Made by a program: the position numbers and the translations under genes. From the NCBI GenBank assembly GCA_024699325.1, contig JAILPS010000006.1:20419-84418 (forward strand): DNA of 64,000 nt, in the 5' to 3' direction. This DNA is from Lachnospiraceae bacterium. Lineage in GTDB: Bacteria > Bacillota > Clostridia > Lachnospirales > Lachnospiraceae. Shown here in pieces: positions 1 to 61,977 of this stretch; positions within the stretch are counted from its first letter, which is position 1, and every line of letters begins with the position of its first letter. The notes under the pieces were generated by a model that saw nothing but the letters and a program-made list of their open reading frames with translations, was not told where the DNA came from and did not search any database.

Positions 1-227
<227 letters not shown>

Positions 228-254
228 TTACTCTTAAACAGACGGTAAACAGTA

Positions 255-283
255 TTGACATTTTAGTAAACGAGATATATATT
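255..283 (+). promoter_or_regulatory. Sigma-A-like promoter TTGACA-N17-TATATT with operator-like site 2 (TTTTAGTAAAC, 261-271) in the spacer
   Basis: Consensus -35 at 255-260 and -10 at 278-283. The spacer contains a 10/11 match to the reverse complement of site 1. Confidence 0.45.
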
Positions 284-331
284 TGCTTTAAGATGGCTGC
301 GGCCAAATCATTTGATTATCGGAGGATTACT

Positions 332-1618
332 ATGAGCAACACAGTTGAACTTAAGGCGAAGCTTTTAAAGGGTGATTACAGGGATGTTCTGGCAGATATA
401 TATGTCGACGAGGCGATGATACCATACCAGACGAAGAGATATGTGGAGGCGATTGAGAAGTATGAGAGCCTCTACGGTGCGGACGATGTGGTGATACTTA
501 GCGCGCCCGGAAGAAGCGAGGTCTGCGGAAACCACACAGACCACCAGCACGGAGAGATACTTGCGGCGTCCATTAACCTTGACGCTATCGCCGTTGTGAA
601 AAAGTTAGACACAGGCGTGGTTAAGGTCGTCTCAGGAACCTATCCCATGATTACACTTGACGCGACTGACCTTTTGCACACTCCTAACGAGGAGGGCACA
701 ACATTTGCCATAATCAAGGGTGTTTTGGCAGGAGCGAAGGAGAGAGGCTACAAGGTTGGCGGTTTCCAGGCCTATATCACAAGCGATGTGTTAATCGGAG
801 CCGGGCTCTCATCGTCAGCTGCGTTTGAGACACTTATCGGCGCCATCATATCATACCTCTATAACGACGGAAAACTTGACGCTGTCACCAACGCAATCAT
901 CGGACAGTATTCTGAAAATGTTTATTTTGGCAAGCCATGCGGACTTATGGACCAGATGGCATGCTCAGTCGGAAGCCTGGTTCACGTGGATTTTGCTGAC
1001 CCTAAGAAACCTGTTGTGGAGAAGGTTTCCTTCGACATGAATAAGCACGGCTATTCACTGTGCATCACTGACACGAAGGGTTCACACGCAGATCTCACAC
1101 ACGAATACGCGGCAGTTCCACAGGAGATGAAGGCGGTTGCAGCTTGTTTTGGCAGGGAGGTTCTGCTCGGAATTAGCGAGAAGGATATCTTGGATAACAT
1201 CGCCATGCTTCGCGAGAAGACCTCTGACAGGGCAGTTTTAAGAGCCCTCCACTTCATCAGAGAGAACAGCCGTGTTCAAAATGCTGTATCTGCACTTAAG
1301 AGCGAGGACATCGAAGCATTTCTTGCAAATATCTGTGCAAGCGGCAACTCATCATATAAATTCCTGCAGAATGTCTACACAAGCTCAGACGTTGACCACC
1401 AGAACGTGTCACTTGCCCTGTGCGTGAGCGAGGGAGTTTTAGCGGGTGGCAGAGGAGTTTGTCGTGTTCACGGAGGCGGTTTTGCCGGAACCATCCAGGC
1501 ATTTGTAAAAAATGAGGCGGTTGCAGACTACAAGGCTGCCATGGAGAAGCTCTTCGGAGAGGGCACATGCCATATTTTAAAAATCCGCAAATACGGCGGC
1601 ATGAAGGTTATGGACTAA
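332..1618 (+). CDS. Galactokinase-family (GHMP) sugar kinase
   Basis: ORF 293-1618. GHMP motifs are PGRSEVCGNHTDHQHG (an atypical galactokinase signature) and GAGLSSSAA (ATP site). The preferred start is ATG 332 (MSNTVEL), preceded by GGAGG, because ATG 293 sits almost on the predicted promoter. Confidence 0.75.
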   Translation: MSNTVELKAKLLKGDYRDVLADIYVDEAMIPYQTKRYVEAIEKYESLYGADDVVILSAPGRSEVCGNHTDHQHGEILAASINLDAIAVVKKLDTGVVKVVSGTYPMITLDATDLLHTPNEEGTTFAIIKGVLAGAKERGYKVGGFQAYITSDVLIGAGLSSSAAFETLIGAIISYLYNDGKLDAVTNAIIGQYSENVYFGKPCGLMDQMACSVGSLVHVDFADPKKPVVEKVSFDMNKHGYSLCITDTKGSHADLTHEYAAVPQEMKAVAACFGREVLLGISEKDILDNIAMLREKTSDRAVLRALHFIRENSRVQNAVSALKSEDIEAFLANICASGNSSYKFLQNVYTSSDVDHQNVSLALCVSEGVLAGGRGVCRVHGGGFAGTIQAFVKNEAVADYKAAMEKLFGEGTCHILKIRKYGGMKVMD

Positions 1619-1628
1619 GAGGTTTGAG

Positions 1629-3656
1629 ATGGAGAAGAAGGCATTATTTCCACAGGTTGGAAGAATTATACACGGTGGGGATTACAACCCCGAGCAGTGG
1701 CTTGACAGGCCGGACATATTAGAGGAAGACATACGACTTATGAAGAAAGCGGGCATCAACGAGGCTACACTTGGCGTGTTTTCATGGTCAATGCTTGAGC
1801 CAAGGGAGGGAGAATTTGACTTCACATGGCTTAAGGAGATTGTGGATAAGCTCTACGAGAACGGAATCTACACGATTATGGCGACGCCCTCGGGGGCAAG
1901 GCCTGCATGGCTTGACGAGAAGTACCCGGAGGCCAGAAGAGTCAACAAAAACGGCGTGAGGGAGCTTCACGGCATCAGGCACAACCACTGCATGACATCG
2001 CCTAAGTACCGCGAACTTGTGAGAATCATGGACGAGAAGCTTGGGGAAATGTTTGGCAACCACCCGGGCGTCATCATGTGGCATATCTCCAACGAATTCG
2101 GCGGGGAGTGCTACTGCGACAAATGTGTGCAGAAGTTCAGGGATTACCTGAGACAGAAGTTTGACGGCGACATAGAGAAGCTAAACCACGCCTGGTGGAA
2201 CACCTTCTGGAGCCACAATTTCAACAATTTTGACCAGATTAATCCTCCGTTTAGCCACGGTGAGTTTTCCAGCATGGGGCTCTCCTTAGAGTGGAGGAGG
2301 TTTACGACCATAAACACGGCGGATTTTTGCAGGGCAGAGATTGAGACTCTTAAGAAGTATAACCCGGATAAGCCCGCCACAACCAACTTCATGACCATGT
2401 ACGACGGTCTGGACTACAGGGTTATGGAGAAGGATTTGGACGTTATCAGCTGGGACAGCTATCCCAGATACCACAACGACTACGAGAAGCTCTCAGACAC
2501 ATTTTATTTTAACGCCTTCTGCCACGCGCAGATGCGCTCCATGAAGAGGGATAAGCCCTTCATGCTCATGGAGAGCGTTCCAAGTCTCGTAAACTGGCAC
2601 GATGTGAATAAGCTTAAGAAGCCGGGGGTTCACAAGCTGACATGTTTGCAGGCGGTGGCCATGGGGTCCGACACCGTGCAGTATTTCCAGTGGAGAAAGG
2701 GGCGCGGAAGCTTCGAGCAGTATCACGGAGCGGTGATTGACCACCTTGGAAGCGACGACACCAGAGTTTTCAGGGAGGTGGCTGACGTAGGCGAGACACT
2801 TCTAAAGCTTAAGGATGTGTGCGGCACAACCCTTAAAAACAGGGCGGCCATAATATATGACTGGGACACCAGATGGGCCTTCTACGAGGTCAGAGCCTTC
2901 GCCCACGACACCATCAGATACGACGACACCTGCATAAGCTTCTACAAAACCATGGCAAAGCTTGGCATAGAGTGCGATATTGTGGCGAGCGATTCAGACC
3001 TCTCACAGTACGAGTTCGTGATTGCGCCACAGATGTACATGCTTAGGAATAAAACCTCTGCCAACCTTAAGAATTACGTAAAAAACGGCGGAGTGCTTCT
3101 TGCTACCTACATGTGCGGCTATGTGGACGAGGACCAGCTGTGCTACTTAGGAGGTTTCCCGGGCGATGGACTTAAGGACGTGTTTGGTGTTACAATAGAG
3201 GAGATTGACGCCTACTATCCGTCTGAGAGAAACACTGTCAAAACAGATGACGGAGAGGTTTATACGGTCAGGGACTACGCTGAGATACTTAGGGACTGTA
3301 AGGCACGAGTCCTGGCCACCTACGGCGGTGACTTCTACGAGGGAAGCCCTGCAATCACTGAGAACGCCTGCGGAAGCGGTCACGCCATCTACCTGGCGGC
3401 CCGCATTGACGAGACCTCACAGGAGAAGCTCATTAAGCACTGTCTGGGCCTCACCAAAACTCTGGCATCAGAGTGCGAGAGGGCGCTTCCTGAAGAGGTG
3501 GGCTACTTCGTTCGCTGTGGCGAAAACAACACATTTGAATTCTTTTTAAACTACAGCGAGGAGACTAAAAATATTGGAAATATCGGCACGGATATGCTGA
3601 CGGGCGAGGAGATTAGCGCCCTTAAGCCGTATCAGGTGGCGGTTGTAAAACATTGA
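1629..3656 (+). CDS. GH42 beta-galactosidase
   Basis: 675 aa. It has GGDYNPEQW at the N-terminus, the HISNEFGGECYCDKC acid/base Glu plus Cys cluster typical of GH42, and no signal peptide. Confidence 0.9.
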   Translation: MEKKALFPQVGRIIHGGDYNPEQWLDRPDILEEDIRLMKKAGINEATLGVFSWSMLEPREGEFDFTWLKEIVDKLYENGIYTIMATPSGARPAWLDEKYPEARRVNKNGVRELHGIRHNHCMTSPKYRELVRIMDEKLGEMFGNHPGVIMWHISNEFGGECYCDKCVQKFRDYLRQKFDGDIEKLNHAWWNTFWSHNFNNFDQINPPFSHGEFSSMGLSLEWRRFTTINTADFCRAEIETLKKYNPDKPATTNFMTMYDGLDYRVMEKDLDVISWDSYPRYHNDYEKLSDTFYFNAFCHAQMRSMKRDKPFMLMESVPSLVNWHDVNKLKKPGVHKLTCLQAVAMGSDTVQYFQWRKGRGSFEQYHGAVIDHLGSDDTRVFREVADVGETLLKLKDVCGTTLKNRAAIIYDWDTRWAFYEVRAFAHDTIRYDDTCISFYKTMAKLGIECDIVASDSDLSQYEFVIAPQMYMLRNKTSANLKNYVKNGGVLLATYMCGYVDEDQLCYLGGFPGDGLKDVFGVTIEEIDAYYPSERNTVKTDDGEVYTVRDYAEILRDCKARVLATYGGDFYEGSPAITENACGSGHAIYLAARIDETSQEKLIKHCLGLTKTLASECERALPEEVGYFVRCGENNTFEFFLNYSEETKNIGNIGTDMLTGEEISALKPYQVAVVKH

Positions 3657-3674
3657 CATAATAATGGGGGTACT

Positions 3675-5384
3675 ATGCTTTATCAGGCTGACTTATGTAA
3701 CGGACAATACAAAAATCCCGTGCTCTACGCGGACTACTCTGACCCGGACGCGATAAGAGTTGGTGATGACTACTTCATGGTGGCATCCAGTTTTTCAAAT
3801 GCTCCGGCCATTCCGCTGCTTCACTCCACGGACCTTGTAAACTGGAGGGTGGTAAACTATGTCTGCGACGCGCTTCCGGAGTACAGATATATCAATCCAC
3901 AGCACGGAAGCGGTGTGTGGGCGCCTGCCATCAGGCACCACGGCGGGGAGTTTTTTGTGTTCTTTCCCATGCCCGACGAGGGCATATATGTAAGCCGGAC
4001 GCGCGACCCCTACGGCAAATGGAGCGCCCCTGCGCTAATCCTGCACGAGGCGGGGGTGATTGATCCCTGTCCGTTCTGGGATGATGACGGGAAACTGTAT
4101 ATGGTCAGCGCGGTTTCGGGCGCGAGGAAGGGCTATAACAGCGTCCTTAGACTGACATGTCTTGACCCTGTAAGCCTGCTTCCGCTCTCAGACAACAAAA
4201 TAATATATGACGGCCGGGGCACCATCTATGAGACCATCGAGGGGCCGAAGGTTCACAAGCGCGGCGGAAGATATTATATTTTTGCCCCTGCGGGCGGCGT
4301 CAAGGGCGGTTTTCAGGCCGTGCTTCGCGCGGACAATATCGAGGGACCCTACGAGATACGCGTCTGTATGCGCCAGGGTGATGCCAAAACCAACGGACCC
4401 CACCAGGGAGCCTGGGTGGACACGGTCACAGGGCAGGACTTCTTCATACATTTTCAGGATGTCTACGCCTGCGGGCGCATCGCGCATCTGCAGCCCATGT
4501 GCTGGAGGGACGGCTGGCCTGTTATCGGAAGGCCTGTAGCGGGACAAACCTGGGGAGAGCCGGTTGACACCTATGATAAGCCTGACGTGAGGGTTAGGCC
4601 GGAGGAACCGTGCGAGCCTGAAAACAGCGATGATTTTGAGGGCGAGAGACTAAGCTATATGTGGCAGTGGAATGCAAACCCTGATGATGGCTGGTATGAG
4701 CTTGAGCCGGAAAAGAGCGCCATAAGATTAAATGCCGTTAGGGCTAATGCCCTCAGGCAGCTTAGCGATATCAGGAATCTTATGCTGACCAAGTGGGCAG
4801 CGCCACAGTTTTGCGCGTCCATGAAGATGAATGTCGAAAATCTTAAGGCGGGGGATGTGGCCGGAATGGTTTCCCTTGGCATGATATTTGGCGGGATTGG
4901 TCTCAGGAAAAATGTTTACGGCGATTTCGAAGTGGTCTTAATATCGGGCAGCCAGGAGTTTGACTGCCAGGAAGCATTTACTAAAAGCGAGGAGACACTC
5001 TGGCCGGTTGACGAACAGAAACTCTTAGAGGCGCATTATAATATTTTGTTTGAATATAACGTGGAAGTGACCTCAAGGGTTGATGTTTTAGAGAGAAAAA
5101 ACTGTCTAGGAGTAGAGGTCTGGGTCAAGAATAGCCCGAGAGAGACCATAACGATGAGAGCGTACTATCTGACAGACGGTGTTAAGTCAGAGATTGACGG
5201 GGCAGTTCTTACATTTCCCGCAAGGGCAGGCAGATGGGTTGGCGTGAAATACGGGCCGTTCTGTTACAATAAGCCGCTTGCAGGGACCGAGACGGCGGAT
5301 GCCTCAGCGCCTGTAAAGCCTGATGAGGCTCAGAGAGGATATGTGACTGTTGACTATGTACACGTGACAGGGGGTAGGGCATGA
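3675..5384 (+). CDS. GH43 glycoside hydrolase (beta-xylosidase/alpha-L-arabinofuranosidase type) with C-terminal beta-sandwich domain
   Basis: 569 aa. NPVLYADYSDPDAIRVGDDYFMVASSF and the later WAPAI and EGPK blocks are typical of the GH43 five-bladed propeller. Confidence 0.85.
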   Translation: MLYQADLCNGQYKNPVLYADYSDPDAIRVGDDYFMVASSFSNAPAIPLLHSTDLVNWRVVNYVCDALPEYRYINPQHGSGVWAPAIRHHGGEFFVFFPMPDEGIYVSRTRDPYGKWSAPALILHEAGVIDPCPFWDDDGKLYMVSAVSGARKGYNSVLRLTCLDPVSLLPLSDNKIIYDGRGTIYETIEGPKVHKRGGRYYIFAPAGGVKGGFQAVLRADNIEGPYEIRVCMRQGDAKTNGPHQGAWVDTVTGQDFFIHFQDVYACGRIAHLQPMCWRDGWPVIGRPVAGQTWGEPVDTYDKPDVRVRPEEPCEPENSDDFEGERLSYMWQWNANPDDGWYELEPEKSAIRLNAVRANALRQLSDIRNLMLTKWAAPQFCASMKMNVENLKAGDVAGMVSLGMIFGGIGLRKNVYGDFEVVLISGSQEFDCQEAFTKSEETLWPVDEQKLLEAHYNILFEYNVEVTSRVDVLERKNCLGVEVWVKNSPRETITMRAYYLTDGVKSEIDGAVLTFPARAGRWVGVKYGPFCYNKPLAGTETADASAPVKPDEAQRGYVTVDYVHVTGGRA

Positions 5385-7282
5385 GCTTGGAATTAGAGAA
5401 GGCGATTAAGAGCGCGGATCTTGAACATGTAAAACTCCTTCTAAGTCTGGACCCAGCCTGCATAGACGATGTAGACAGCGAGGGCGTGGCCATGAGTTTT
5501 CTCGCGGCAAGGACAGGAGACTTGGCGCTTCTCAGATACATCGTGGAGTATTCAAGAGCCAGCATGAACATCCGTGACCCTAAGTACAGGAGCATGCTTC
5601 ACTACGGCGTTATGAGCGGCAGTGTTGATGTTTCTAAATACCTGACTGAGAAGGTTGGGCTAAGCCCCGTGGACGGCGACAGTGATCTCGTGACACCATA
5701 TGAGCTGTCTGAGAGCCTGGGCTTTAAGGATATAGAGAAATATTTTGAGCAGGTGGTTGGCGCGCCTCTTGAAAAAATGTACAAAAACCCTGTGAGGAGA
5801 GGTTTCTTCCCGGACCCTTCCATAGTGCGCGTCGGGGAGGATTACTACATGGTAAACTCCTCCTTCGTGTATTTTCCGTGCATTCCGATATCGCACTCTA
5901 AGGATTTGATTCACTGGCAGGTGATAGGACACGCCATAACAAACCCTGACTGGAGTAAGCTGGGAGATCTGGAGGGCGGAAGAGGATACTGGGCGCCAGA
6001 CATATCATATTACAGGGGGCGTTTTTATATAACGGCAACCTACCGCCTGAACGAGAACCCGGAAATGCTTCGCCGACAGATCATCGTGTCCTCCGAGAGG
6101 GCTGAGGGACCGTACTCTGAGCCTGTATACATCGACGAGGACGGAATAGATCCGTCACTTTTTGCGGATGATGACGGCCGCCGCTACATGCTTTTAAACC
6201 GCGGCGCGAGAATTCTGGAATTAAATGAGGACGCGACACGCCAGATATCTGAGGCGGAGCTTCTCTACTACGGAGACCAGAAGAGGGCGCCGGAGGGACC
6301 ACATTTGCTTAAGAAGGACGGTTACTACTATCTGTTTGAGGCAGAGGGCGGAACCGGCCCCGGACACCGCATAAGCGTGGCGAGGAGCAGAACCCTTAAG
6401 GGCAACTACGAGCCCTGCCCGTATAATCCTATCATGATACAGAGAGACCACGAGGCACCGATATGGCGCTGTGGCCACGGCAAGCCTGTGAGCACCCCTG
6501 ACGGCAGGTGGTATATGGTCTATCTGTGCGCCAGAAAACTTATAGGAAAAAACGGCGAGAAGTTAAGCATTTTAGGCCGTGAGACCGCCATCGATCCCAT
6601 AACGTGGACAGTGGACGGCTGGCCTGTTGTCAACAATCTCAAGGGTCCGAGCTGCCTGCAGGTTAAGCCTGTAATCAGCGGTGACACAGATGATGTGGAC
6701 AGCGATTACATGTTTGCAGACTGGATGTGCGTGAGGGAGCCTCAGGAGAATATGTTCAGAATGTCCGGGAAGGACCACATTTTCATGCGCTCAGGAAGCA
6801 GGGATTTGTGCGAGATTGGAAGTGTGAGCGCTCTGCTTAGAAGGCAGACGGCGTTTGATTTTAGCGCAGGTGTGACACTTCAGGTTCCTGCTCTTAGAAC
6901 CGGGCAGAACGCCGGAATGGTCTGCTACTACGACGAGAATTCCTATGTGAAATTTGGCCTTTTTATGGAAAATGATGGCCTGTATGTGGGCGTTCTGGAG
7001 CATGTGGGAAGAGAGAACCGCGCAGACAGGACCAGACTCTCTTCACAGTGCACAAAACTTAGGCTTGACATAAAAACTGTGGGCAATGCCAGAACATTTG
7101 CATATGAGACATGCTCGGACGCTAAAGAGAGTGGAGAATTTGTGCTCGACAGCGTGGAGTATCTGTGTGACGAAGGCCTGAGAATGGGCAAACGCTTCAC
7201 GGGCGCCATGGTGGGCATATATGCCTACAGCGGTGGAGGCGAAGCGTTCACATGCGAGTTTACAGATTTTATCATAGCATAA
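5381..7282 (+). CDS. Ankyrin-repeat / GH43 fusion protein
   Basis: 633 aa. The first ~130 aa show 3-4 ankyrin-like repeats (VKLLLSLDPACIDDVDSEG; FLAARTGDLALLRYIVE...NIRD; MLHYGVMSGSVDVSKYL). These are followed by a GH43 core (NPVRRGFFPDPSIVRVGEDYYMVNSSF, YWAPDI, EGPH). The start overlaps the upstream stop (ATGA). Confidence 0.8.
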   Translation: MSLELEKAIKSADLEHVKLLLSLDPACIDDVDSEGVAMSFLAARTGDLALLRYIVEYSRASMNIRDPKYRSMLHYGVMSGSVDVSKYLTEKVGLSPVDGDSDLVTPYELSESLGFKDIEKYFEQVVGAPLEKMYKNPVRRGFFPDPSIVRVGEDYYMVNSSFVYFPCIPISHSKDLIHWQVIGHAITNPDWSKLGDLEGGRGYWAPDISYYRGRFYITATYRLNENPEMLRRQIIVSSERAEGPYSEPVYIDEDGIDPSLFADDDGRRYMLLNRGARILELNEDATRQISEAELLYYGDQKRAPEGPHLLKKDGYYYLFEAEGGTGPGHRISVARSRTLKGNYEPCPYNPIMIQRDHEAPIWRCGHGKPVSTPDGRWYMVYLCARKLIGKNGEKLSILGRETAIDPITWTVDGWPVVNNLKGPSCLQVKPVISGDTDDVDSDYMFADWMCVREPQENMFRMSGKDHIFMRSGSRDLCEIGSVSALLRRQTAFDFSAGVTLQVPALRTGQNAGMVCYYDENSYVKFGLFMENDGLYVGVLEHVGRENRADRTRLSSQCTKLRLDIKTVGNARTFAYETCSDAKESGEFVLDSVEYLCDEGLRMGKRFTGAMVGIYAYSGGGEAFTCEFTDFIIA

Positions 7283-54061: not shown

Positions 54062-55147
54062 ATGGAGACAATTGTCGTTAGAGAGAGTGAACTGGATGAC
54101 TATTATGAGGAGGCCGGAAGGATACTGAGAGAGGGAGGTTTAGTGGCATTCCCCACAGAGACCGTGTACGGGCTTGGCGGCAACGCTCTTGACCCGGAGG
54201 CCTCAGCTAAAATATACGCAGCCAAGGGTCGTCCAAGCGACAACCCTCTGATTGTCCATGTGGCGGATTTTGCTGATGTGGCGCCCCTTGTCAGGGAGAT
54301 TACCCCTGTGGCGGATAAGCTCATGAAGAAGTTCTGGCCGGGCCCTCTTACCATAATCATGAATAAGAGCGACATAGTGCCCACGGCGACCACAGGAGGC
54401 CTTCAGAGCGTGGCAGTCAGAATGCCCGTGCACCCCGTGGCCATGAAGCTTATCAGGTGCGCAGGAGTTCCCATAGCAGCGCCAAGCGCCAACACATCCG
54501 GAAGACCAAGCCCCACGAAGGCTGAGCACGTCATCGAGGATCTGTTTGGCAGAGTGGACATGATAATGGACGGCGGAAGCGTCGGGATAGGAGTTGAATC
54601 CACCATCGTGGACGTGACGGGTGAGGTTCCAATGATTCTTCGCCCGGGCTACATCACGAAGGAAATGCTCACCGAGGCCATAGGCGATGTGACAATCGAT
54701 AAGGCGGTCGCTAAGATTAACGAGGGTCAGCTGATCACAAGCAAGGAGCCGCCGAAGGCTCCAGGCATGAAGTATCGCCACTACGCCCCGAAGGCTCCGC
54801 TTAATCTAATCTGCGGAGACGAGGAGGAGGTCGAGGCAGAGCTTAGAAAGCTCGCCGCACAGGGCAAGAGCGACGGGCTGAGAGTTGGAATCATATGCTC
54901 TGACGGGGCAGACCTTGACGGATGCGCCGACAGAGTCTATCACATAGGAAGGCGCGGGGACACAGAGACCATCGCGCACAATATTTACGATTGCTTAAGG
55001 CAGTGCGACGCCGACAAGCTCGACGTCATATACAGTGACGATTTCGGGCTTGAGAACGACGAGGCGCTGGGGTATGCTGTGCAGAACAGAATTATGAAGG
55101 CTGCGGGGGGACATGTGCTCAACCTGAAGCAGAAGGGCGATCTATGA
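54062..55147 (+). CDS. tsaC: L-threonylcarbamoyladenylate synthase, long Sua5/YwlC type
   Basis: 361 aa with FPTETVYGLGGNA, KGRPSDNPLIVH and SANTSGRPSPT motifs plus a C-terminal Sua5 domain. Confidence 0.92.
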   Translation: METIVVRESELDDYYEEAGRILREGGLVAFPTETVYGLGGNALDPEASAKIYAAKGRPSDNPLIVHVADFADVAPLVREITPVADKLMKKFWPGPLTIIMNKSDIVPTATTGGLQSVAVRMPVHPVAMKLIRCAGVPIAAPSANTSGRPSPTKAEHVIEDLFGRVDMIMDGGSVGIGVESTIVDVTGEVPMILRPGYITKEMLTEAIGDVTIDKAVAKINEGQLITSKEPPKAPGMKYRHYAPKAPLNLICGDEEEVEAELRKLAAQGKSDGLRVGIICSDGADLDGCADRVYHIGRRGDTETIAHNIYDCLRQCDADKLDVIYSDDFGLENDEALGYAVQNRIMKAAGGHVLNLKQKGDL

Positions 55148-55626
55148 GTCATTATAAGCGGATTTTGTTTATATGTAACGACAACACTTGCAGGAGCATT
55201 ATGGCTGAGGCCATTATGAAGAGCATCGAGAACAGCATAAGCGAGGAAAACAGGCCCAGGGTGCACTCCAGGGGCCTTGTAGTGCTGTTTAGCGAGCCGA
55301 TAAACCCCAAGGCGGTCATGGTTATGAGAAAAAACCACCTAGAGCCCGCCAAGGAGACAAGCCAGCAGTTTACGGACGCTGACTGCAAGGAGGGAACGCT
55401 GTATCTCACCATGACCGAGAGGGAGAAGAGAATGGTTGAGGAGATGGTTCCGCATCTGTCAAACCTCTACACCCTGAGGGAGTTCGTGGGCGAGGTGGGG
55501 GACATCAACGAGCCCTACGGCGGAACCGAGGAAGACTATGAGATGGTATATGAGCACATCGACCTGATGGTCAAGATGGTTGCTCAGAAAATTATAAGAT
55601 TTGGGGAACAGAAGGAGGATGTGTAA
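55144..55626 (+). CDS. Low-molecular-weight protein phosphatase (YwlE-like arginine/tyrosine phosphatase)
   Basis: 160 aa with the CX5R(S) P-loop ICNDNTCRS. The position after tsaC matches ywlC-ywlE synteny. Confidence 0.85.
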   Translation: MSHYKRILFICNDNTCRSIMAEAIMKSIENSISEENRPRVHSRGLVVLFSEPINPKAVMVMRKNHLEPAKETSQQFTDADCKEGTLYLTMTEREKRMVEEMVPHLSNLYTLREFVGEVGDINEPYGGTEEDYEMVYEHIDLMVKMVAQKIIRFGEQKEDV

Positions 55627-56066
55627 TGATAGCGATAGGAAGTGACCACGGCGGATTCGCACTTAAGGAGGTTGTGGCGAAGCATTTGAAGGAGTTGGGA
55701 CTTGACTATGTGGACTGCGGCTGCTACGACATTTCAAGCGTGGATTATCCTGTGTACGCACAGGCGGTTGCAAGAGAGATACAGTCAGGCAAATGTGACA
55801 GAGGAATACTGGTGTGCAGCACGGGAATAGGAATCTCCATGGCTGCCAACAAGTGCACAGGCATAAGAGCTGCTCTTTGCTCAGAGCCATACAGTGCCAA
55901 GATGACCAGACTTCACAACGATGCCAATGTTTTGTGCATGGGCGGACTGGTTGTGGGGGACAACTTAGCGCTCGAGATAGTTGACACATTTTTAAACACA
56001 GAGTTTTCAGGCGAGGCCAGACATCAGAGAAGAATTGATCTGATCGAGTCAGGCAAGCTTGTGTAA
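55626..56066 (+). CDS. rpiB: Ribose-5-phosphate isomerase B
   Basis: 146 aa with IAIGSDHGG and the CSTGIGISMAANK motif. Confidence 0.93.
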   Translation: MIAIGSDHGGFALKEVVAKHLKELGLDYVDCGCYDISSVDYPVYAQAVAREIQSGKCDRGILVCSTGIGISMAANKCTGIRAALCSEPYSAKMTRLHNDANVLCMGGLVVGDNLALEIVDTFLNTEFSGEARHQRRIDLIESGKLV

Positions 56067-56089
56067 GATGTTTTATGGGGGATAAAACT

Positions 56090-56278
56090 ATGAGCAGGGG
56101 TACAGGATTTGGAATACTTGGCGTGATAGTTTTGATTATCATGCTGGCGCTGGGGTCATGCGGCGTTAACACCGACAGGGGAATAGACAGGACAGGTGCA
56201 GGCGACTATGTTGACTACTACGGCTGCCCGAACTCCAGGAGAGTCAAGAAGCTCAACCTGGCAAAAAAGAAGAGATAA
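56090..56278 (+). CDS. Small lipobox peptide A (62 aa), candidate precursor/substrate of the adjacent radical SAM enzyme
   Basis: The track ORF starts at 56075. ATG 56090 follows GGGGGAT. The sequence is MSRGTGFGILGVIVLIIMLALGSCGVNTDRGIDRTGAGDYVDYYGCPNSRRVKKLNLAKKKR. It has a signal peptide with an LGSC lipobox and a C-terminal module shared with peptide B. Confidence 0.65.
   Translation: MSRGTGFGILGVIVLIIMLALGSCGVNTDRGIDRTGAGDYVDYYGCPNSRRVKKLNLAKKKR
56215..56278 (+). repeat. Direct repeat copy 1 (3' end of peptide A gene)
   Basis: It shares an identical 21-mer, CTACTACGGCTGCCCGAACTC, with 57974-57994. The remainder is about 75 percent identical. Confidence 0.8.
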
Positions 56279-56281
56279 TCT

Positions 56282-57859
56282 ATGGTTAGAGAAGTGACAC
56301 CAGATCTTAGAATTCTGCTCGTGGAGGTCACGCAGAAGTGCAATGCATCCTGCGACCACTGCGGAAGCAGATGTGATATCCATAGCGCGGAGGTTTTGAC
56401 AGCCGAGGATATTTTGGGAGTTTTTCGAGATGTCAGGGACAATATAGGGACCGATGTCATGATTAATATCACAGGCGGCGAGCCCCTTATGAGGCGTGAC
56501 CTGTTTGATATTATGGGCCAGGCCCACGACATGGGATTTGACTGGGGGATGGTCACCAACGGCTCCATGATTGACGACAACATCATAGAGAAGATGCGTA
56601 GTGCCGGCATGAGGACCATAACGATTAGTCTTGACGGTCTGGCGCACACACACGAGACCATCAGACATCTTCCGGGGTCTTTTGAGCGCATTATGAAGTC
56701 CCTTAAGAAGCTTAAGGATGCGGCGTTTTTAGACTGTGTGCAGGTGACATTTACATCAAACAGGAAGAATTACAGGGAGTTTCCTAAGCTCTACGAGAGG
56801 CTTGAGCAGATCGGAATAGATTCTGTGAGGACCAGCATCATAGACCCTATCGGAAGGGCTTGCGATCACAGTGAGCTACTCATGGGGCGCGAGGAGATAC
56901 GCTTCATGATGGATTTCGCCAACCGTGTGAACGCGGCTGGAAGGATGCCTGTCATCTGGGGCTGTCCGCATTTTCTGGGAGATAAGCTTGAAAACAGGCA
57001 CTTCTTCTGCTTTGCGGGGATATATGCGGCGAGCATTCTCTATAACGGAGACATATTTGTGTGTCCGAATGTCCCCAGAAGACCTGAGCTTATTCAGGGC
57101 AATATTAAGACCGAGCGCTTCAGCGAGGTCTGGAAAAACGGCTATGATTACTTTAGACACAGAGTGCTTCCCGAGAAATGTGAGACTTGTAAATACCGCG
57201 ACGACTGCGCGGGCGACAGCCTCCACACATTTGACTTTGACAGGAAAGCGCCAAACTTCTGCTATAAGGAAATATTTGACGTGAATATAGGAAAATACGA
57301 AAACTGGCTCAAAAAACACTACGGAAGTGTTGAGATAACAGAGATTTCGCCGGATGAGCCGGCGCCAGCCATCTACATAGAGCCTGGCGCCTATGAGGAG
57401 ATTAAGTCATACTTTCACATGGGGGTCAGACATCCCCTGAGCATGTTTGAGCAGCAGATGGGGCTTGTTGGATTTAAGGTTGACGGCGACTACATAGTCC
57501 GCTATGCATTTCCATCTGTGATTGAGGCGAAGGCGGCGGACCTTGCGGTGTTTACGCCTGGGACGCTATCGCACGCGAGGAAGCAGACGGCCATCATTAA
57601 GCGCAATGTCATGCACTCTGACTGGGCCGACATGCCTGGCAATGACAGGCTTCGCTTTTTGGGCTTCATACATTCACATCCCATGCAGGAGGAGTTGTGC
57701 TACAGCGTGGGAGACGAGATAATTCACAAAAGTCTGTATAAGAAGTTTGGGGATTATATAGGACTGTTAGTTAATCCTGAACACGATTTGATTGGCGCCT
57801 ATGTGGGCGGCGATGACATCGTTCAGGGAAATCTCAAGATTGTAAATGTGGGGGATTAA
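56282..57859 (+). CDS. Radical SAM / SPASM-like enzyme with a C-terminal JAMM/MPN-like domain
   Basis: 525 aa. The radical SAM motif is CNASCDHC (C20, C24, C27). The auxiliary-cluster Cys pattern is CX12GX4C (CFAGIYAASILYNGDIFVC) followed by CETCKYRDDC (CX2CX5C). The C-terminal ~165 aa carry FIHSHPMQEELCYSVGDE (HxH-x8-S-xx-D) and an upstream EPGAYEE Glu. Confidence 0.8.
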   Translation: MVREVTPDLRILLVEVTQKCNASCDHCGSRCDIHSAEVLTAEDILGVFRDVRDNIGTDVMINITGGEPLMRRDLFDIMGQAHDMGFDWGMVTNGSMIDDNIIEKMRSAGMRTITISLDGLAHTHETIRHLPGSFERIMKSLKKLKDAAFLDCVQVTFTSNRKNYREFPKLYERLEQIGIDSVRTSIIDPIGRACDHSELLMGREEIRFMMDFANRVNAAGRMPVIWGCPHFLGDKLENRHFFCFAGIYAASILYNGDIFVCPNVPRRPELIQGNIKTERFSEVWKNGYDYFRHRVLPEKCETCKYRDDCAGDSLHTFDFDRKAPNFCYKEIFDVNIGKYENWLKKHYGSVEITEISPDEPAPAIYIEPGAYEEIKSYFHMGVRHPLSMFEQQMGLVGFKVDGDYIVRYAFPSVIEAKAADLAVFTPGTLSHARKQTAIIKRNVMHSDWADMPGNDRLRFLGFIHSHPMQEELCYSVGDEIIHKSLYKKFGDYIGLLVNPEHDLIGAYVGGDDIVQGNLKIVNVGD

Positions 57860-57860
57860 T

Positions 57861-58037
57861 ATGAAGAGACATAAGGGGATTATTCTTGCGGTTATGCTGT
57901 TGCTTGCAAGCCTTGCGCTTGGAGCATGTAATTTCACAAGTGTATTTGACGGAGGGGGAGGCGAGTATATGAGCTACTACGGCTGCCCGAACTCTAAGAA
58001 GGTTAAGAAGCTTAACCTTAAGAAGAATAAGAGATAG
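57861..58037 (+). CDS. Small lipobox peptide B (58 aa), paralog of peptide A
   Basis: The track ORF starts at 57846. ATG 57861 follows GGGGGAT and lies 1 nt after the enzyme's stop. The sequence is [58 protein letters not shown]. Confidence 0.65.
57974..58037 (+). repeat. Direct repeat copy 2 (3' end of peptide B gene)
   Basis: See copy 1. The differences are mostly synonymous or R/K exchanges. Confidence 0.8.
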
Positions 58038-58048
58038 AGAGGTGTGCG

Positions 58049-58534
58049 ATGGCTAAGAGAAAGGATTATATCAGCTGGGATGAATATTTTATGGGGGTTG
58101 CTGAGCTGTCCGCGAGGAGAAGCAAGGACCCTGGAACACAGGTGGGAGCCTGTATTGTGAGCCCGTCTAACAAGATTATATCCATGGGCTACAACGGTTT
58201 TCCGATGGGCTGCTCTGACGATGAATTCCCCTGGGAGAGGGACGGAGAGGATCCGTTTGACACGAAGTACACATATGTGACTCACGCTGAGATGAACGCA
58301 ATCCTTAACAACCGCACCTCCAGCCTTGAGGGCTGCAGGCTGTATGTGACGCTGTTTCCATGTAACGAATGTGCGAAGGCTGTCATCCAGTCAGGCATCA
58401 AGGAGGTAATCTACGCCTCCGACAAATACGCCCAGACAAGCGCCGTGAAGGCGAGCAAGAGAATGTTTGACGCCGCGGGCGTTAAATACACGCCATACGA
58501 GGGCAGCAACAAGGAAATACTGCTTGTTCTCTAA
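58049..58534 (+). CDS. comEB: dCMP deaminase (ComEB-type)
   Basis: 161 aa with the zinc motifs HAEMNA and PCNECAK. Confidence 0.9.
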
Positions 58535-58550
58535 TTTTTGGCTGTTTTGC

Positions 58551-58579
58551 TTGACTGCGGTTTTAATAACTGATATTAT
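58551..58579 (+). promoter_or_regulatory. Promoter TTGACT-N17-TATTAT upstream of the malic enzyme gene
   Basis: -35 at 58551-58556 and -10 at 58574-58579. Confidence 0.45.
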
Positions 58580-58648
58580 TTAGAACGCTACTCGCAGGAT
58601 TTGGGGGAGGAATCGGCGGGCAAGTATATAGATGAGAAGGAGATAATC

Positions 58649-59800
58649 ATGACCATCAACGAGAGAGCATTAGAGCTTCATGAGCAGTGGAACGGCAAGC
58701 TTGAGACCGTTTCTAAGACTAAGGTTAATACAAGAGAGGATCTCTCCCTTGCGTACACACCGGGCGTTGCTGAGCCTTGTAAGGTAATCGCGAAGGATCC
58801 GGAAGCAGCATACAAGTACACAATCAAGTCCAACACCGTGGCTGTAGTTTCAGACGGAAGTGCGGTTTTGGGACTTGGCAATATAGGGGCTCTCGCCGCC
58901 ATGCCTGTCATGGAGGGCAAGGCCGTTTTGTTTAAGGAGTTTGGCGGTGTCAATGCATTTCCAATCTGCTTAGACACACAGGACACAGAGGAGATTATCG
59001 AGACAGTCGTAAGGATTGCGCCCGCATTTGGCGGTATCAACCTTGAGGACATCGCGGCTCCAAGATGTTTCGAGATAGAGGAGAGGCTTAAGAAGCTTCT
59101 CGACATCCCGGTTATGCACGATGACCAGCACGGCACGGCAATCGTGGTGCTCGCAGGTATCATTAACGCCCTGAAGGTCACCGGCAAGAAGAAGGAGGAC
59201 TGCAAGGTCGTAGTAAACGGCGCGGGAAGCGCGGGCGTTGCCATCACCAAGCTCCTCTTAAACTATGGTTTTCCAAACATCACCATGGTTGACAAGGTGG
59301 GAATTCTGTGTAAGGGCATGGAGGGTCTCAACTGGATGCAGGAGAAGATGGTGGAGGTGACCAACCTTTCACATGCCACAGGTTCTCTCGCAGACGCTCT
59401 TAGGGGTGCTGACATCTTCGTCGGCGTCTCAGCTCCAAACATTGTGAGCCCTGAGATGGTTAAGAGCATGAATAAGGATTCCATACTGTTTGCCATGGCA
59501 AACCCTGTTCCTGAGATTATGCCTGACGTGGCGAAGGCAGCAGGCGCAAGAGTTGTGGGCACAGGAAGAAGCGATTTCCCTAACCAGGTGAACAATGTAT
59601 TGATCTTCCCTGGAATATTTAAGGGAGCCCTCGAGGGAAGAGCAACAGCCATCACAGAGGAAATGAAGCTCGCAGCCGCAGAGGCTATCGCGGCATTAGT
59701 TCCGGAGGATGAGCTCAGTGATGTCAACATTCTTCCTGAGGCATTTGACCCTAGAGTTGCCAACACGGTTGCAGCCAAGGTTAAGGAGTTTATCCGCTAA
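58649..59800 (+). CDS. NAD(P)-dependent malic enzyme (short bacterial type)
   Basis: The track ORF starts at TTG 58601. ATG 58649 follows GAAGGAG. It has LAYTPGVAEPC, VVSDGSAVLGLGNIG and NGAGSAGVA motifs. Confidence 0.92.
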   Translation: MTINERALELHEQWNGKLETVSKTKVNTREDLSLAYTPGVAEPCKVIAKDPEAAYKYTIKSNTVAVVSDGSAVLGLGNIGALAAMPVMEGKAVLFKEFGGVNAFPICLDTQDTEEIIETVVRIAPAFGGINLEDIAAPRCFEIEERLKKLLDIPVMHDDQHGTAIVVLAGIINALKVTGKKKEDCKVVVNGAGSAGVAITKLLLNYGFPNITMVDKVGILCKGMEGLNWMQEKMVEVTNLSHATGSLADALRGADIFVGVSAPNIVSPEMVKSMNKDSILFAMANPVPEIMPDVAKAAGARVVGTGRSDFPNQVNNVLIFPGIFKGALEGRATAITEEMKLAAAEAIAALVPEDELSDVNILPEAFDPRVANTVAAKVKEFIR

Positions 59801-59834
59801 TATTTAAAGAATCTTACAGAGAGGAGGTGACCGC

Positions 59835-60350
59835 ATGGTTTCGGAACCTACAACTCTTTACAAGCTTATGATTCTTCATATGCTTAAGAAGGTTAATTTT
59901 CCCCTCACGAACAGTCAGCTTACTGACTTCTTCAACAGCAGGGATTACGCGAATTATTTTACGCTTCAGCAGGTTATAAGTGAGCTCTTAGATGCCAACC
60001 TTATCCATGCGGAAACCATCAGAAATTCTACAAGATATGAGCTTACCAAGGAGGGGGAGGACGTACTCTACTTTTTTGGCAAGCAGATTTCCCCGACCAT
60101 CGTGGAGGACATGGACAAGTTCCTGACAGAGAACAAGTTCCAGCTCAGAAGCGAGGTGGGCGTGACCGCTGACTACTATAAGGGGGCAGCGGGAAGCTAC
60201 ATCGTGGACTGCCGCATCAGGGAGGGCAAGGAGAACCTGATAGAGCTTAAGATAAGCGTTCCGAGCGAGGAGCAGGCCATATCAGTCTGCGACAAGTGGG
60301 AGAAGGAGAACCAGGATATCTACACTCTGGTTATGCAAAAGTTACTTTAA
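59835..60350 (+). CDS. DUF4364-like putative transcriptional regulator (PadR-like wHTH)
   Basis: 171 aa. The N-terminal YKLMILHMLKKVNFPLTNSQLTDFF is typical of this clostridial family. The call is from recall only. Confidence 0.5.
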   Translation: MVSEPTTLYKLMILHMLKKVNFPLTNSQLTDFFNSRDYANYFTLQQVISELLDANLIHAETIRNSTRYELTKEGEDVLYFFGKQISPTIVEDMDKFLTENKFQLRSEVGVTADYYKGAAGSYIVDCRIREGKENLIELKISVPSEEQAISVCDKWEKENQDIYTLVMQKLL

Positions 60351-60501: not shown

Positions 60502-61977
60502 ATGGAATATGCAAAGTTTAAGGTGGATAAGCTTAGAGAGCTTGCCGCCAGTCTTATGATTCCTGAGCCTAACAAGCTAAAAAAACAGGAACTTTTGGAA
60601 AAAATAGAGGCCATAATAGGGCCTTCAGTTGCAGCAGAGCCGGAGCCCAAGCGTGAGCCAAAGCGCGAGCCCAAGCGTGAGCCAAAGAGCGAGCCTAAGA
60701 GCGAGCCCAAGCCGGAGCCTGTCAAAATCCCCATCCCTGAGAGGGTGCTTCGCATCATGAGGGAGGACGAAATCGATGAGCTCGCGGCAGACGCGTGGGA
60801 GCCGCAGGCGCCGTTTGGCATGAGCCGTGAGAGGTTTTTTGAGTCCGTCTCAGGAGATATCGTCACAGGTCTGTTTGACATTCAGCCTGACAACAACTAC
60901 GGCTTCATCAGAAGCGACGGCAACGGAACCATCGACGAGGACGTGTACGTAGGCGCGGGTCAGGTCAGACGTTTTAATCTAAAATGCGGCGACTATATTG
61001 TCTGCGGCACGAGAAACAAGCTGCCCGCTGACAAAAGCCCTGGACTTCTGTTTGTGAAGAGCATCAACTCCCACAGCGTGGAGGAGAGCAAAAAACGCAA
61101 AGATTTTGATAAGATGACCCCTATTTATCCCATGGAGAGGCTTAAAATGGAGCACATGGGATGCCCCATGAGCATGAGGGTGGTGGATCTTCTAAGCCCG
61201 ATAGGCAAGGGCCAGAGAGGAATGATCGTGTCGCCCCCTAAGGCCGGCAAGACTACTCTTATCAAACAGATTGCCAGATCTATCGCCAAATCAAACCCTG
61301 ACGTGAACTTAATCGTCCTGCTTATAGATGAGAGACCTGAGGAGGTTACGGACATAACAGAGGCGATTGCAGGACCCAATGTATCGGTTGTGGCGTCAAC
61401 ATTTGACGAGCAGCCTGAGCACCACAAGTCTGTCAGCGAGAAGGTTATAGAGAAGGCCAAGAGAATGGTTGAATACGGCGATGACGTGGTGATACTTTTA
61501 GATTCGCTCACCAGACTCTCAAGAGCCTACAACCTTACAGTAAACCCAAGCGGCAGAACGCTCTCAGGAGGTTTAGACCCCACGGCGCTCTACTTCCCGA
61601 AGAAGTTTTTTGGAGCGGCCAGAAACATGCGTGAGGGCGGAAGCCTGACCATACTTGCGACAGCGCTTATAGACACCGGAAGCCGCATGGACGATGTCAT
61701 CTTCGAGGAGTTTAAGGGCACGGGCAATATGGAGCTTGTGCTTGACAGGAAGCTCTCCGAGAGAAGGTTCTTCCCTGCGATAGATGTGGCGGGCTCAGGC
61801 ACGAGAAATGAGGAGCTGCTACTTAGCCGCGAGGAGTTTGAGGCCACGGGAATAGTGAGACGCGCTTTGGCGGGAAGCAAGAGCGAGGAGGTTGCCGAGC
61901 GTTTGCTTGATCTGTTTAACAAGAGCAGGACAAACGCGGAGCTTGTTGATTACATTAGAAAGACAAGATATATTTGA
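60502..61977 (+). CDS. rho: Transcription termination factor Rho with a short charged N-terminal insertion
   Basis: 491 aa. It has an N-terminal Rho_N (LRELAASLMIPEPNKLKKQELLEKI), an EPKR repeat insert, an OB/CSD region, the P-loop PPKAGKTT and a RecA-type core. Confidence 0.95.
   Translation: MEYAKFKVDKLRELAASLMIPEPNKLKKQELLEKIEAIIGPSVAAEPEPKREPKREPKREPKSEPKSEPKPEPVKIPIPERVLRIMREDEIDELAADAWEPQAPFGMSRERFFESVSGDIVTGLFDIQPDNNYGFIRSDGNGTIDEDVYVGAGQVRRFNLKCGDYIVCGTRNKLPADKSPGLLFVKSINSHSVEESKKRKDFDKMTPIYPMERLKMEHMGCPMSMRVVDLLSPIGKGQRGMIVSPPKAGKTTLIKQIARSIAKSNPDVNLIVLLIDERPEEVTDITEAIAGPNVSVVASTFDEQPEHHKSVSEKVIEKAKRMVEYGDDVVILLDSLTRLSRAYNLTVNPSGRTLSGGLDPTALYFPKKFFGAARNMREGGSLTILATALIDTGSRMDDVIFEEFKGTGNMELVLDRKLSERRFFPAIDVAGSGTRNEELLLSREEFEATGIVRRALAGSKSEEVAERLLDLFNKSRTNAELVDYIRKTRYI
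60637..60720 (+). repeat. In-frame 12-nt tandem repeat (about 7 units, GAGCCNAAGNGN) encoding (EPKR/EPKS)n within rho
   Basis: GAGCCG GAGCCCAAGCGT GAGCCAAAGCGC GAGCCCAAGCGT GAGCCAAAGAGC GAGCCTAAGAGC GAGCCCAAGCCG GAGCCT. Confidence 0.85.

Follow-up and report, generated by a model that had tools for sequence, protein, structure and literature searches.

Why would a radical SAM enzyme carry a peptidase-like domain at its C terminus, and on what might such a domain act? The question is raised by an open reading frame (ORF) of 525 residues at positions 56282 to 57859 (+ strand) of a 64,000-nucleotide (nt) stretch of a Lachnospiraceae bacterium genome (GenBank assembly GCA_024699325.1, contig JAILPS010000006.1, positions 20,419 to 84,418 of the forward strand), which is referred to here, at its full length, as the window. 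The ORF encodes a fusion of a radical SAM core, a SPASM region and an MPN/JAB (JAMM) domain, and it is flanked by the genes for two small lipoproteins, precursors A and B, which end in near-identical C-terminal tags. The last ~170 residues of the enzyme are a genuine MPN/JAMM zinc peptidase-type domain that had previously gone unannotated, and we suggest that this domain processes the tagged precursors encoded on either side of it.

The MPN/JAB domain comprises residues 352 to 525 (positions 57335 to 57856, + strand). An AlphaFold2 model of this part, based on a 30-sequence alignment, had a mean predicted local distance difference test (pLDDT) score of 93.4 and a predicted template modeling (pTM) score of 0.89, and it gave 206 matches (E ≤ 1e-3) in a Foldseek search of the PDB. 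MPN/JAMM proteins made up the whole of the top 50 (E values of 1e-8 to 3e-7, template modeling [TM] scores of about 0.5 to 0.75), and the matches included Rpn11, BRCC36, CSN5/6, AMSH/Sst2, the Caldiarchaeum Rpn11 homologue and 8tyx, a bacterial complex of a ubiquitin-like protein (Ubl) and its deubiquitinase (BilC). Likewise, a profile built from close homologues of the domain retrieved AMSH-type JAMM proteases as its top 14 PDB matches (E values of 0.009 to 0.1). A wider profile, to which distant relatives had been added, matched the archaeal Rpn11 homologue of Caldiarchaeum (1.1e-7) and AMSH-LP (7.8e-7) as well as BRCC36, Rpn11 and CSN5, and 60 of 60 among the matches listed were MPN proteins. 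Distant members of the family exceed the Pfam Prok-JAB/JAB thresholds (P0149, with 27.5 versus 25 bits, and P0147, P0154 and P0168), and the domain family as a whole is small, with 91 clusters (E ≤ 1e-3) in a set of 1.84 billion representatives. The MPN fold proposed in the initial annotation, for which a structure prediction and a Foldseek comparison had been suggested as checks, is thus borne out. The domain also lies where it had been placed (positions 57359 to 57859, residues 360 to 525), but that range is slightly too short on the N-terminal side, where the structure begins at about residue 353 (position 57338).

Together with the fold, the domain has the full set of JAMM residues. The segment FLGFIHSHPMQEELCYSVGDE (residues 459 to 479, positions 57656 to 57718) contains the motif H464-S-H466-P-x7-S475-x2-D478 (positions 57671 to 57715, + strand; codons at 57671 to 57673 for H464, 57677 to 57679 for H466, 57704 to 57706 for S475 and 57713 to 57715 for D478), in which both His residues and the Asp are predicted Zn ligands and S475 is the JAMM Ser. 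The arrangement of H-x-H, eight residues and S-x-x-D that had been read from the sequence was therefore recovered at precisely these positions. It had also been described as one residue longer than the canonical arrangement, which is correct; however, this is not a peculiarity of the window protein. Most members of this JAB subfamily, among them Pfam-positive ones and unfused ones encoded in E1 operons, have an 8-residue spacer from H-x-H to Ser, a minority have the canonical 7, and HMMER accommodates the difference by opening a one-residue gap in canonical JAMMs.

The catalytic Glu (the general base) is predicted to be E390 (positions 57449 to 57451, + strand), which belongs to an invariant EQQ motif. 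This motif, EQQ(M)GLVG, precedes the second long beta-strand (QMGLVGFKV), and in a family-wide alignment the position of E390 matches that of the Glu in canonical, Pfam-positive JABs. The acidic segment EPGAYEE (residues 367 to 373, positions 57380 to 57400) had been put forward as the source of this Glu and was rejected, as E367 is replaced by Thr in distant members whereas E390 is invariant. Within the C-terminal region, a 46-sequence alignment (51 to 67% identity to the window protein) showed E390, Q391, Q392, G397, H464, H466, P467, Y474, S475, G477, D478 and H482 to be invariant. EQQ and H-x-H-x8-S-x2-D occur in 118 of the 119 homologues of full length (the exception, P0110, reads HSPP), and nearly all of the 89 family representatives with coverage of the motif have retained the catalytic set as well. 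Across clades at 22 to 30% identity, the five catalytic residues are likewise all present. Conservation of the predicted H, H, S, D and E ligands, which had been named as a further check on the metalloprotease assignment, is thus seen both in the close alignment and among the full-length homologues. Such strict conservation indicates purifying selection on residues that are needed only for catalysis.

The part upstream of the domain has the CX3CX2C motif and the Cys-rich SPASM region of radical SAM/SPASM maturases. Its radical SAM core (residues 14 to 173, positions 56321 to 56800, + strand) matches PF04055 with an E value of 4.9e-23, and the CX3CX2C cysteines C20, C24 and C27 (positions 56339 to 56362, + strand) are invariant in the 46-sequence alignment. 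Seven further invariant cysteines (C228, C243, C261, C300, C303, C309 and C327) are found in the SPASM region of auxiliary iron-sulfur (Fe-S) clusters (positions 56963 to 57262, + strand), where a Pfam scan matched PF13186 at residues 243 to 304 (E value of 3.5e-8). A variable linker (residues 330 to 351, positions 57269 to 57334, + strand), with indel-rich and poorly conserved alignment columns, connects this region to the JAB domain. With PF04055 and PF13186 upstream of an MPN-fold domain, the radical SAM-JAMM fusion suspected from the sequence is real. The initial annotation, whose author was aware of no characterised fusion of this kind, also agrees with our search, as the searchable literature yielded no account of radical SAM-JAB fusions or of a YYGCP tag; many subscription papers lie outside that literature, so that an earlier bioinformatic mention is possible.

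The top NCBIfam match of the enzyme was TIGR04133 ('rSAM_w_lipo'; residues 8 to 328, E value of 3.6e-72), but its score of 243.2 bits is below the curated cut-off of 425 bits and the enzyme is not a member of that family. The name of this 350-position model points to a pairing with lipoproteins, as in the window, and the model contains no JAB domain. MftC and PqqE models also match the radical SAM part in the NCBIfam scan, while the PADLOC defence models gave only a generic, viperin-type radical SAM similarity. Neither a RiPP (ribosomally synthesized and post-translationally modified peptide) recognition element (RRE; PqqD-like) nor any other peptide-binding domain was detected in the enzyme by Pfam and NCBIfam scans, and the radical SAM motif starts as early as residue 20. 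The enzyme has 1,728 homologues at E ≤ 1e-5. Nearly all of the best 120 are 516 to 548 residues long; these 120 derive from metagenome-assembled genomes (MAGs) of Lachnospiraceae and other Clostridia, and they are annotated as radical SAM and SPASM only.

A scan of one genome per species yielded 41 loci, all of them from uncultured Clostridia and mostly from rumen samples, and the addition of other fetched loci and of the window gave 44 non-redundant loci. In 43 of these, one to six small tagged ORFs lie beside the enzyme gene on the same strand, amounting to 73 precursors. When neighbouring ORFs were compared all against all, every other gene family was limited to at most 8 of 43 loci. As only tagged ORFs recur beside the enzyme, the cassette consists of precursors and one enzyme, and the lack of any other recurrent neighbour family means that no separate protease or transporter is available in it. 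One locus (L047, positions 1425 to 4603) has a split form, in which a gene for a 343-residue radical SAM-SPASM protein overlaps a gene for a 200-residue JAB protein that reads HFHP instead of HSHP. The JAB part is therefore an autonomous module that is tied to the radical SAM enzyme. The L047 tag, HYGCPNS(K/R)RINKLNLKRRK, is carried by upstream proteins of 217 and 135 residues with several long hydrophobic, transmembrane-like stretches. Downstream of this gene pair are a Tn916-type excisionase gene and a primase gene, which suggest a mobile element.

In the window, precursor A (62 residues, positions 56090 to 56278, + strand; 67 residues if started at the upstream ATG at 56075) ends 3 nt upstream of the enzyme gene and has a lipobox (LGSC), a short linker and the tag DYYGCPNSRRVKKLNLAKKKR. 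Precursor B (58 residues, positions 57861 to 58037, + strand) begins 1 nt downstream of the enzyme gene and has a lipobox (LGAC), a GGGG linker and a tag of the same type; its mechanically assigned ORF start at 57846 overlaps the enzyme gene. Because GGGGGA ribosome-binding sites precede the ATG codons at 56090 (by 7 nt) and 57861, the mechanical starts at 56075 and 57846 are probably too far upstream. Indeed, the form of precursor B that NCBI lists, as a hypothetical protein from a Lachnospiraceae MAG, is the one of 58 residues. A homologue search with precursor B returned only itself, the peptide being too short for the size of the database, and neither the tagged precursors nor the Ubl-type precursors described below had significant Pfam or NCBIfam matches.

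Both window precursors combine a lipoprotein signal peptide with YYGCPNS and a basic tail. Across the loci, the N-terminal parts differ by lineage: those of Lachnospiraceae are lipoprotein signals, and those of other Clostridia are hydrophobic, amphipathic helices. The tag consensus is x-Y-Y-G-C-P-N-S-(K/N/R)-(K/R)-(A/V/I)-x-K-L-(Q/N)-L-x-(K/R)-(K/R)-x-(Y)-(R/K). Y, G, P, S and L never vary among 65 tags, 42 of which have a tail of exactly 16 residues after YYGCP.

We consider it rather probable that the JAB domain is a cis-acting processing peptidase, which cuts the radical SAM-modified precursor in or next to its YGCP core and thereby strips off the basic follower ahead of export. Of the two roles suggested in the initial annotation, trimming of the modified peptide and non-catalytic recognition, the tag with its basic tail of fixed length, the lack of an RRE and the lack of another protease favour trimming of the follower without proving it. 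From this gene arrangement and the conserved motifs we infer an activity of the JAB domain on the precursors, an order of steps, a site of cleavage and the chemistry of the radical SAM module, as follows. The cytoplasmic enzyme would bind the conserved tag, which together with its fixed-length basic tail would itself serve as the handle, since the enzyme has no RRE. The radical SAM/SPASM module would modify one residue of the invariant Y-G-(C)-P core, and the JAB domain would then hydrolyse a peptide bond in or next to this core. JAB peptidases hold their substrate by an extended C-terminal tail and cleave behind a small residue, and the most plausible bond would be the one after the invariant Gly (Y-G|C-P); that the cut falls at exactly this bond is a tentative and rather doubtful assignment. 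Such a cut would remove a basic follower of 17 residues, and the N-terminal part, a lipoprotein in the window, could then be exported and lipidated with a modified ...YYG end.

Parts of this proposal have precedents in known systems. The JABs of bacterial Ubl-E1-E2-JAB operons, such as BilC (8tyx), share the MPN fold and the full JAMM residue set with the window domain, and BilC cuts the peptide bond between Gly97 and Ala98 of BilA to trim its Ubl (PMC10557695). Removal of a C-terminal extension after a Gly is the very reaction that is proposed here for the window JAB. However, the window domain is fused to, or elsewhere translationally coupled with, a radical SAM/SPASM enzyme and has no E1 or E2 nearby, its putative substrates are small lipoproteins with a YYGCPNS tag instead of Ubls, and its spacer from H-x-H to Ser is 8 residues compared with 7 in the BilC type. 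AMSH, Rpn11, CSN5 and BRCC36, the eukaryotic and archaeal JAMM isopeptidases that gave the best structural and profile matches, have the same E...HxH...SxxD order. They differ in sequence (12 to 20% identity), in a spacer that is one residue shorter, in the lack of an attached Fe-S enzyme, and in acting on ubiquitin or NEDD8 isopeptide bonds in large complexes.

The small prokaryotic JABs Mec+ (acting on CysO-Cys) and QbsD (acting on QbsE-GG-CF) remove one or two residues, Cys first, after a C-terminal Gly. This cut resembles the one proposed at Y-G|C-P, but they act on sulfur carriers of the ThiS/MoaD-like beta-grasp type that end in GG, and they are not known to be linked to radical SAM peptide modification. 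In the biosynthesis of mycofactocin (MftC/MftE) and pyrroloquinoline quinone (PQQ; PqqE/PqqF), a radical SAM-SPASM enzyme modifies a short invariant core near the C terminus of the precursor, and a dedicated peptidase then excises or trims the product. These pathways use an RRE (PqqD or MftB) and separate, unrelated peptidases, whereas the window enzyme has a fused JAB domain and no RRE. Their precursors are single small peptides without membrane-targeting N termini, in contrast to the C-terminal tag found here on membrane-targeted or ubiquitin-fold carriers.

The relatives of the domain give it a pedigree in ubiquitin systems. Its nearest relatives outside the radical SAM context are P0142, P0147, P0150 and P0154 (E values of 1e-16 to 1e-20), in which the JAB domain is N-terminal and has the same EQQxGL and x8 motifs. 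The two that were looked up, P0142 (L046, positions 1 to 6212) and P0150 (L045), are encoded in operons with small proteins. P0142 is preceded by a 1,528-residue multi-AAA protein, a 99-residue protein, a ThiF-type E1, which matches E1-E2 models of PADLOC, and a 185-residue protein, and these surroundings are the gene content of bacterial ubiquitin-like conjugation systems. The P0142 gene also adjoins genes for a DNA methylase, Vsr, a transposase and a Z1-domain protein, so that the region looks like a defence or mobile island. The stand-alone JABs P0125 and P0130 lie on contigs of only ~1 kb.

A further link to ubiquitin is provided by a sister clade of radical SAM-SPASM-JAB enzymes (L037 to L044; ~30% identity in the JAB domain), whose genes are always preceded by one for a protein of ~145 residues (for example, at positions 1944 to 2384 of L037) with 105 homologues, none of them annotated. 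Its first 90 residues form a predicted beta-grasp fold (pLDDT of about 87 to 90), and the top 50 PDB matches of this model were all ubiquitin, Ubl or UBX domains (E values of 8e-5 to 1e-3), with target-normalised TM scores of 0.66 to 0.79 for single-domain targets. The C-terminal part has a disordered linker, an invariant L-Y-G-C-P and an acidic C-terminal helix. A ubiquitin fold was found only in these L037 to L044 precursors, and the window precursors, lipoproteins of 58 to 62 residues, do not have it; comparison of the precursors of both clades thus leaves (Y/L)-Y-G-C-P as the shared element.

Several observations weigh against follower trimming by the JAB domain. The window protein scores below every Pfam and NCBIfam JAB model (PF14464, PF01398), whether it is scanned whole or as the isolated domain; the domain is thus a member of the MPN/JAMM superfamily by fold and motif and stands outside Pfam Prok-JAB/JAB by score. 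A ligand is lost in a few members (HSPP in P0110, HSRP in P0130), and the domain can therefore persist without its full catalytic residues. Pro at the P2' position would be unusual for a cut at Y-G|C-P, so this site is a guess, and if a radical SAM-derived link were to span G|C, the cut fragments would stay joined. The JAB domains show no charge complementarity with the basic or acidic tails, as their mean net charge is -3.7 in both clades. Finally, both precursors of an Oribacterium MAG (L005, positions 821 to 1740) have YYGAP, which shows that the tag Cys is not obligatory. These precursors are longer lipoproteins (123 and 149 residues), and the accompanying enzyme, P0038, has 670 residues, ~140 of them extra. 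As the L005 precursors have only YYGAP, an obligatory Cys thioether was downgraded as a candidate for the radical SAM product.

The doubts about sequence scores bear first on the identity of the domain. Single-sequence searches were empty: residues 330 to 525 had no Pfam or NCBIfam match even when the isolated domain was scanned at E ≤ 10, and phmmer against the PDB returned only spurious antibody light chains and a TNF ligand (E > 0.5). Nevertheless, the predicted fold, the profile searches, the transitive Pfam matches and the residue conservation refute the idea that the H-x-H...S-x-x-D string is a chance resemblance in a region that is not MPN, and we give this idea practically no weight. 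It is likewise very improbable that the domain is a structural leftover without catalytic activity, or that its target has nothing to do with the peptides encoded next to it (as it would in autoprocessing or enzyme regulation, for example). The window protein does lack a Pfam JAB match, as would suit a decayed domain, but the catalytic set and the fused or adjacent arrangement are strictly conserved over more than 100 clusters, and tagged precursors are paired with the enzyme in nearly every locus. The main rival, with a larger though still minor share of our expectation, is a role in recognition, in which the JAB domain would be an RRE surrogate that clamps the C-terminal tail (or the Ubl domain in the sister clade) and presents YGCP to the radical SAM site while hydrolysing the precursor little, if at all. 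MPN domains bind C-terminal tails in extended form, many proteins of the superfamily serve as scaffolds without catalysis, and the non-catalytic CSN6, Rpn8 and Prp8 are among the structural and sequence matches of the domain. The absence of an RRE or any other binding domain, the fixed tail length, which suggests ruler-like docking, and the occasional ligand loss in P0110 and P0130 also fit this role. Non-catalytic MPN domains, however, typically lose their catalytic residues, and here all five are kept in 118 of 119 homologues and across distant clades. Binding and cutting are not exclusive, and both roles could coexist in one JAB domain.

The ubiquitin-system relatives raise the further question of whether the domain is an isopeptidase or deconjugase that, like a deubiquitinase, reverses or edits a covalent link made via the tag instead of trimming a linear peptide. 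Peptide and isopeptide bonds alike are cut by JAB deubiquitinases (PMC10557695), the domain is most closely related to JABs from ubiquitin-like operons that contain an E1, and the sister clade has ubiquitin-fold precursors. Against this, no E1, E2 or ligase-like gene is conserved beside the radical SAM-JAB gene in the 43 loci or present in the window neighbourhood, and the window precursors have no ubiquitin fold, which makes a deconjugase quite unlikely. Somewhat less remote, but still improbable in our estimation, is that the cassette is an offshoot of a ubiquitin-like system, in which a portable, radical-modified YGCP tag on lipoproteins, membrane proteins or a ubiquitin-fold domain would be cut after Gly, and the exposed, chemically modified ...Y-G end (or a branched product) would be used at the cell envelope for conjugation, anchoring or signalling, with no need of E1 or E2. 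The JAB peptidase and the radical SAM/SPASM enzyme would thus jointly generate a novel type of protein C terminus. If so, a ubiquitin-like logic of tail processing would have been recruited for radical chemistry on full-size proteins, which is not that of a classical leader-core RiPP.

Radical SAM/SPASM maturases rank among the main sources of new peptide chemistry, and the proteolytic release of the product is unexplained for many of their classes. If the JAB domain is the maturase's own peptidase, the cassette would be a self-contained two-gene system of precursor and enzyme that could be reconstituted directly, and it would provide a new type of protease for RiPP engineering along with a defined, portable C-terminal tag. 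The links to JABs of E1 operons and to ubiquitin-fold precursors join RiPP-like radical chemistry to prokaryotic ubiquitin ancestry, a connection that is undescribed in the searchable literature of either field. The enzyme family is large yet annotated only as 'radical SAM protein', and it is confined to uncultured rumen and gut Clostridia.

In the window, the cassette is wedged into a run of same-strand genes (positions 54062 to 60350) with intergenic gaps of 3 to 11 nt. Judged by eye, the flanking genes are presumably housekeeping genes and resemble those for Sua5/TsaC, a low-molecular-weight phosphatase and RpiB, followed by dCMP deaminase and malic enzyme. The other loci have entirely different neighbours, which indicates that the cassette moves as a unit. 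A promoter and terminator scan around the window cassette gave only shuffle-level signals. Further downstream, an ORF of 491 residues (positions 60502 to 61977) is one that we take, again by eye, to encode the transcription terminator Rho; its N-terminal part contains an insert of low complexity, made of tandem EPKR/EPKS units (EPEPKREPKREPKREPKSEPKSEPKPEP), at roughly positions 60630 to 60720. From 53 to 63 kb, every long ORF is on the + strand. Each 2-kb bin of the window (positions 1 to 64000) has a positive GC skew, and the cumulative skew climbs steadily throughout; skew and strand bias fit a leading-strand segment that is distant from both origin and terminus.

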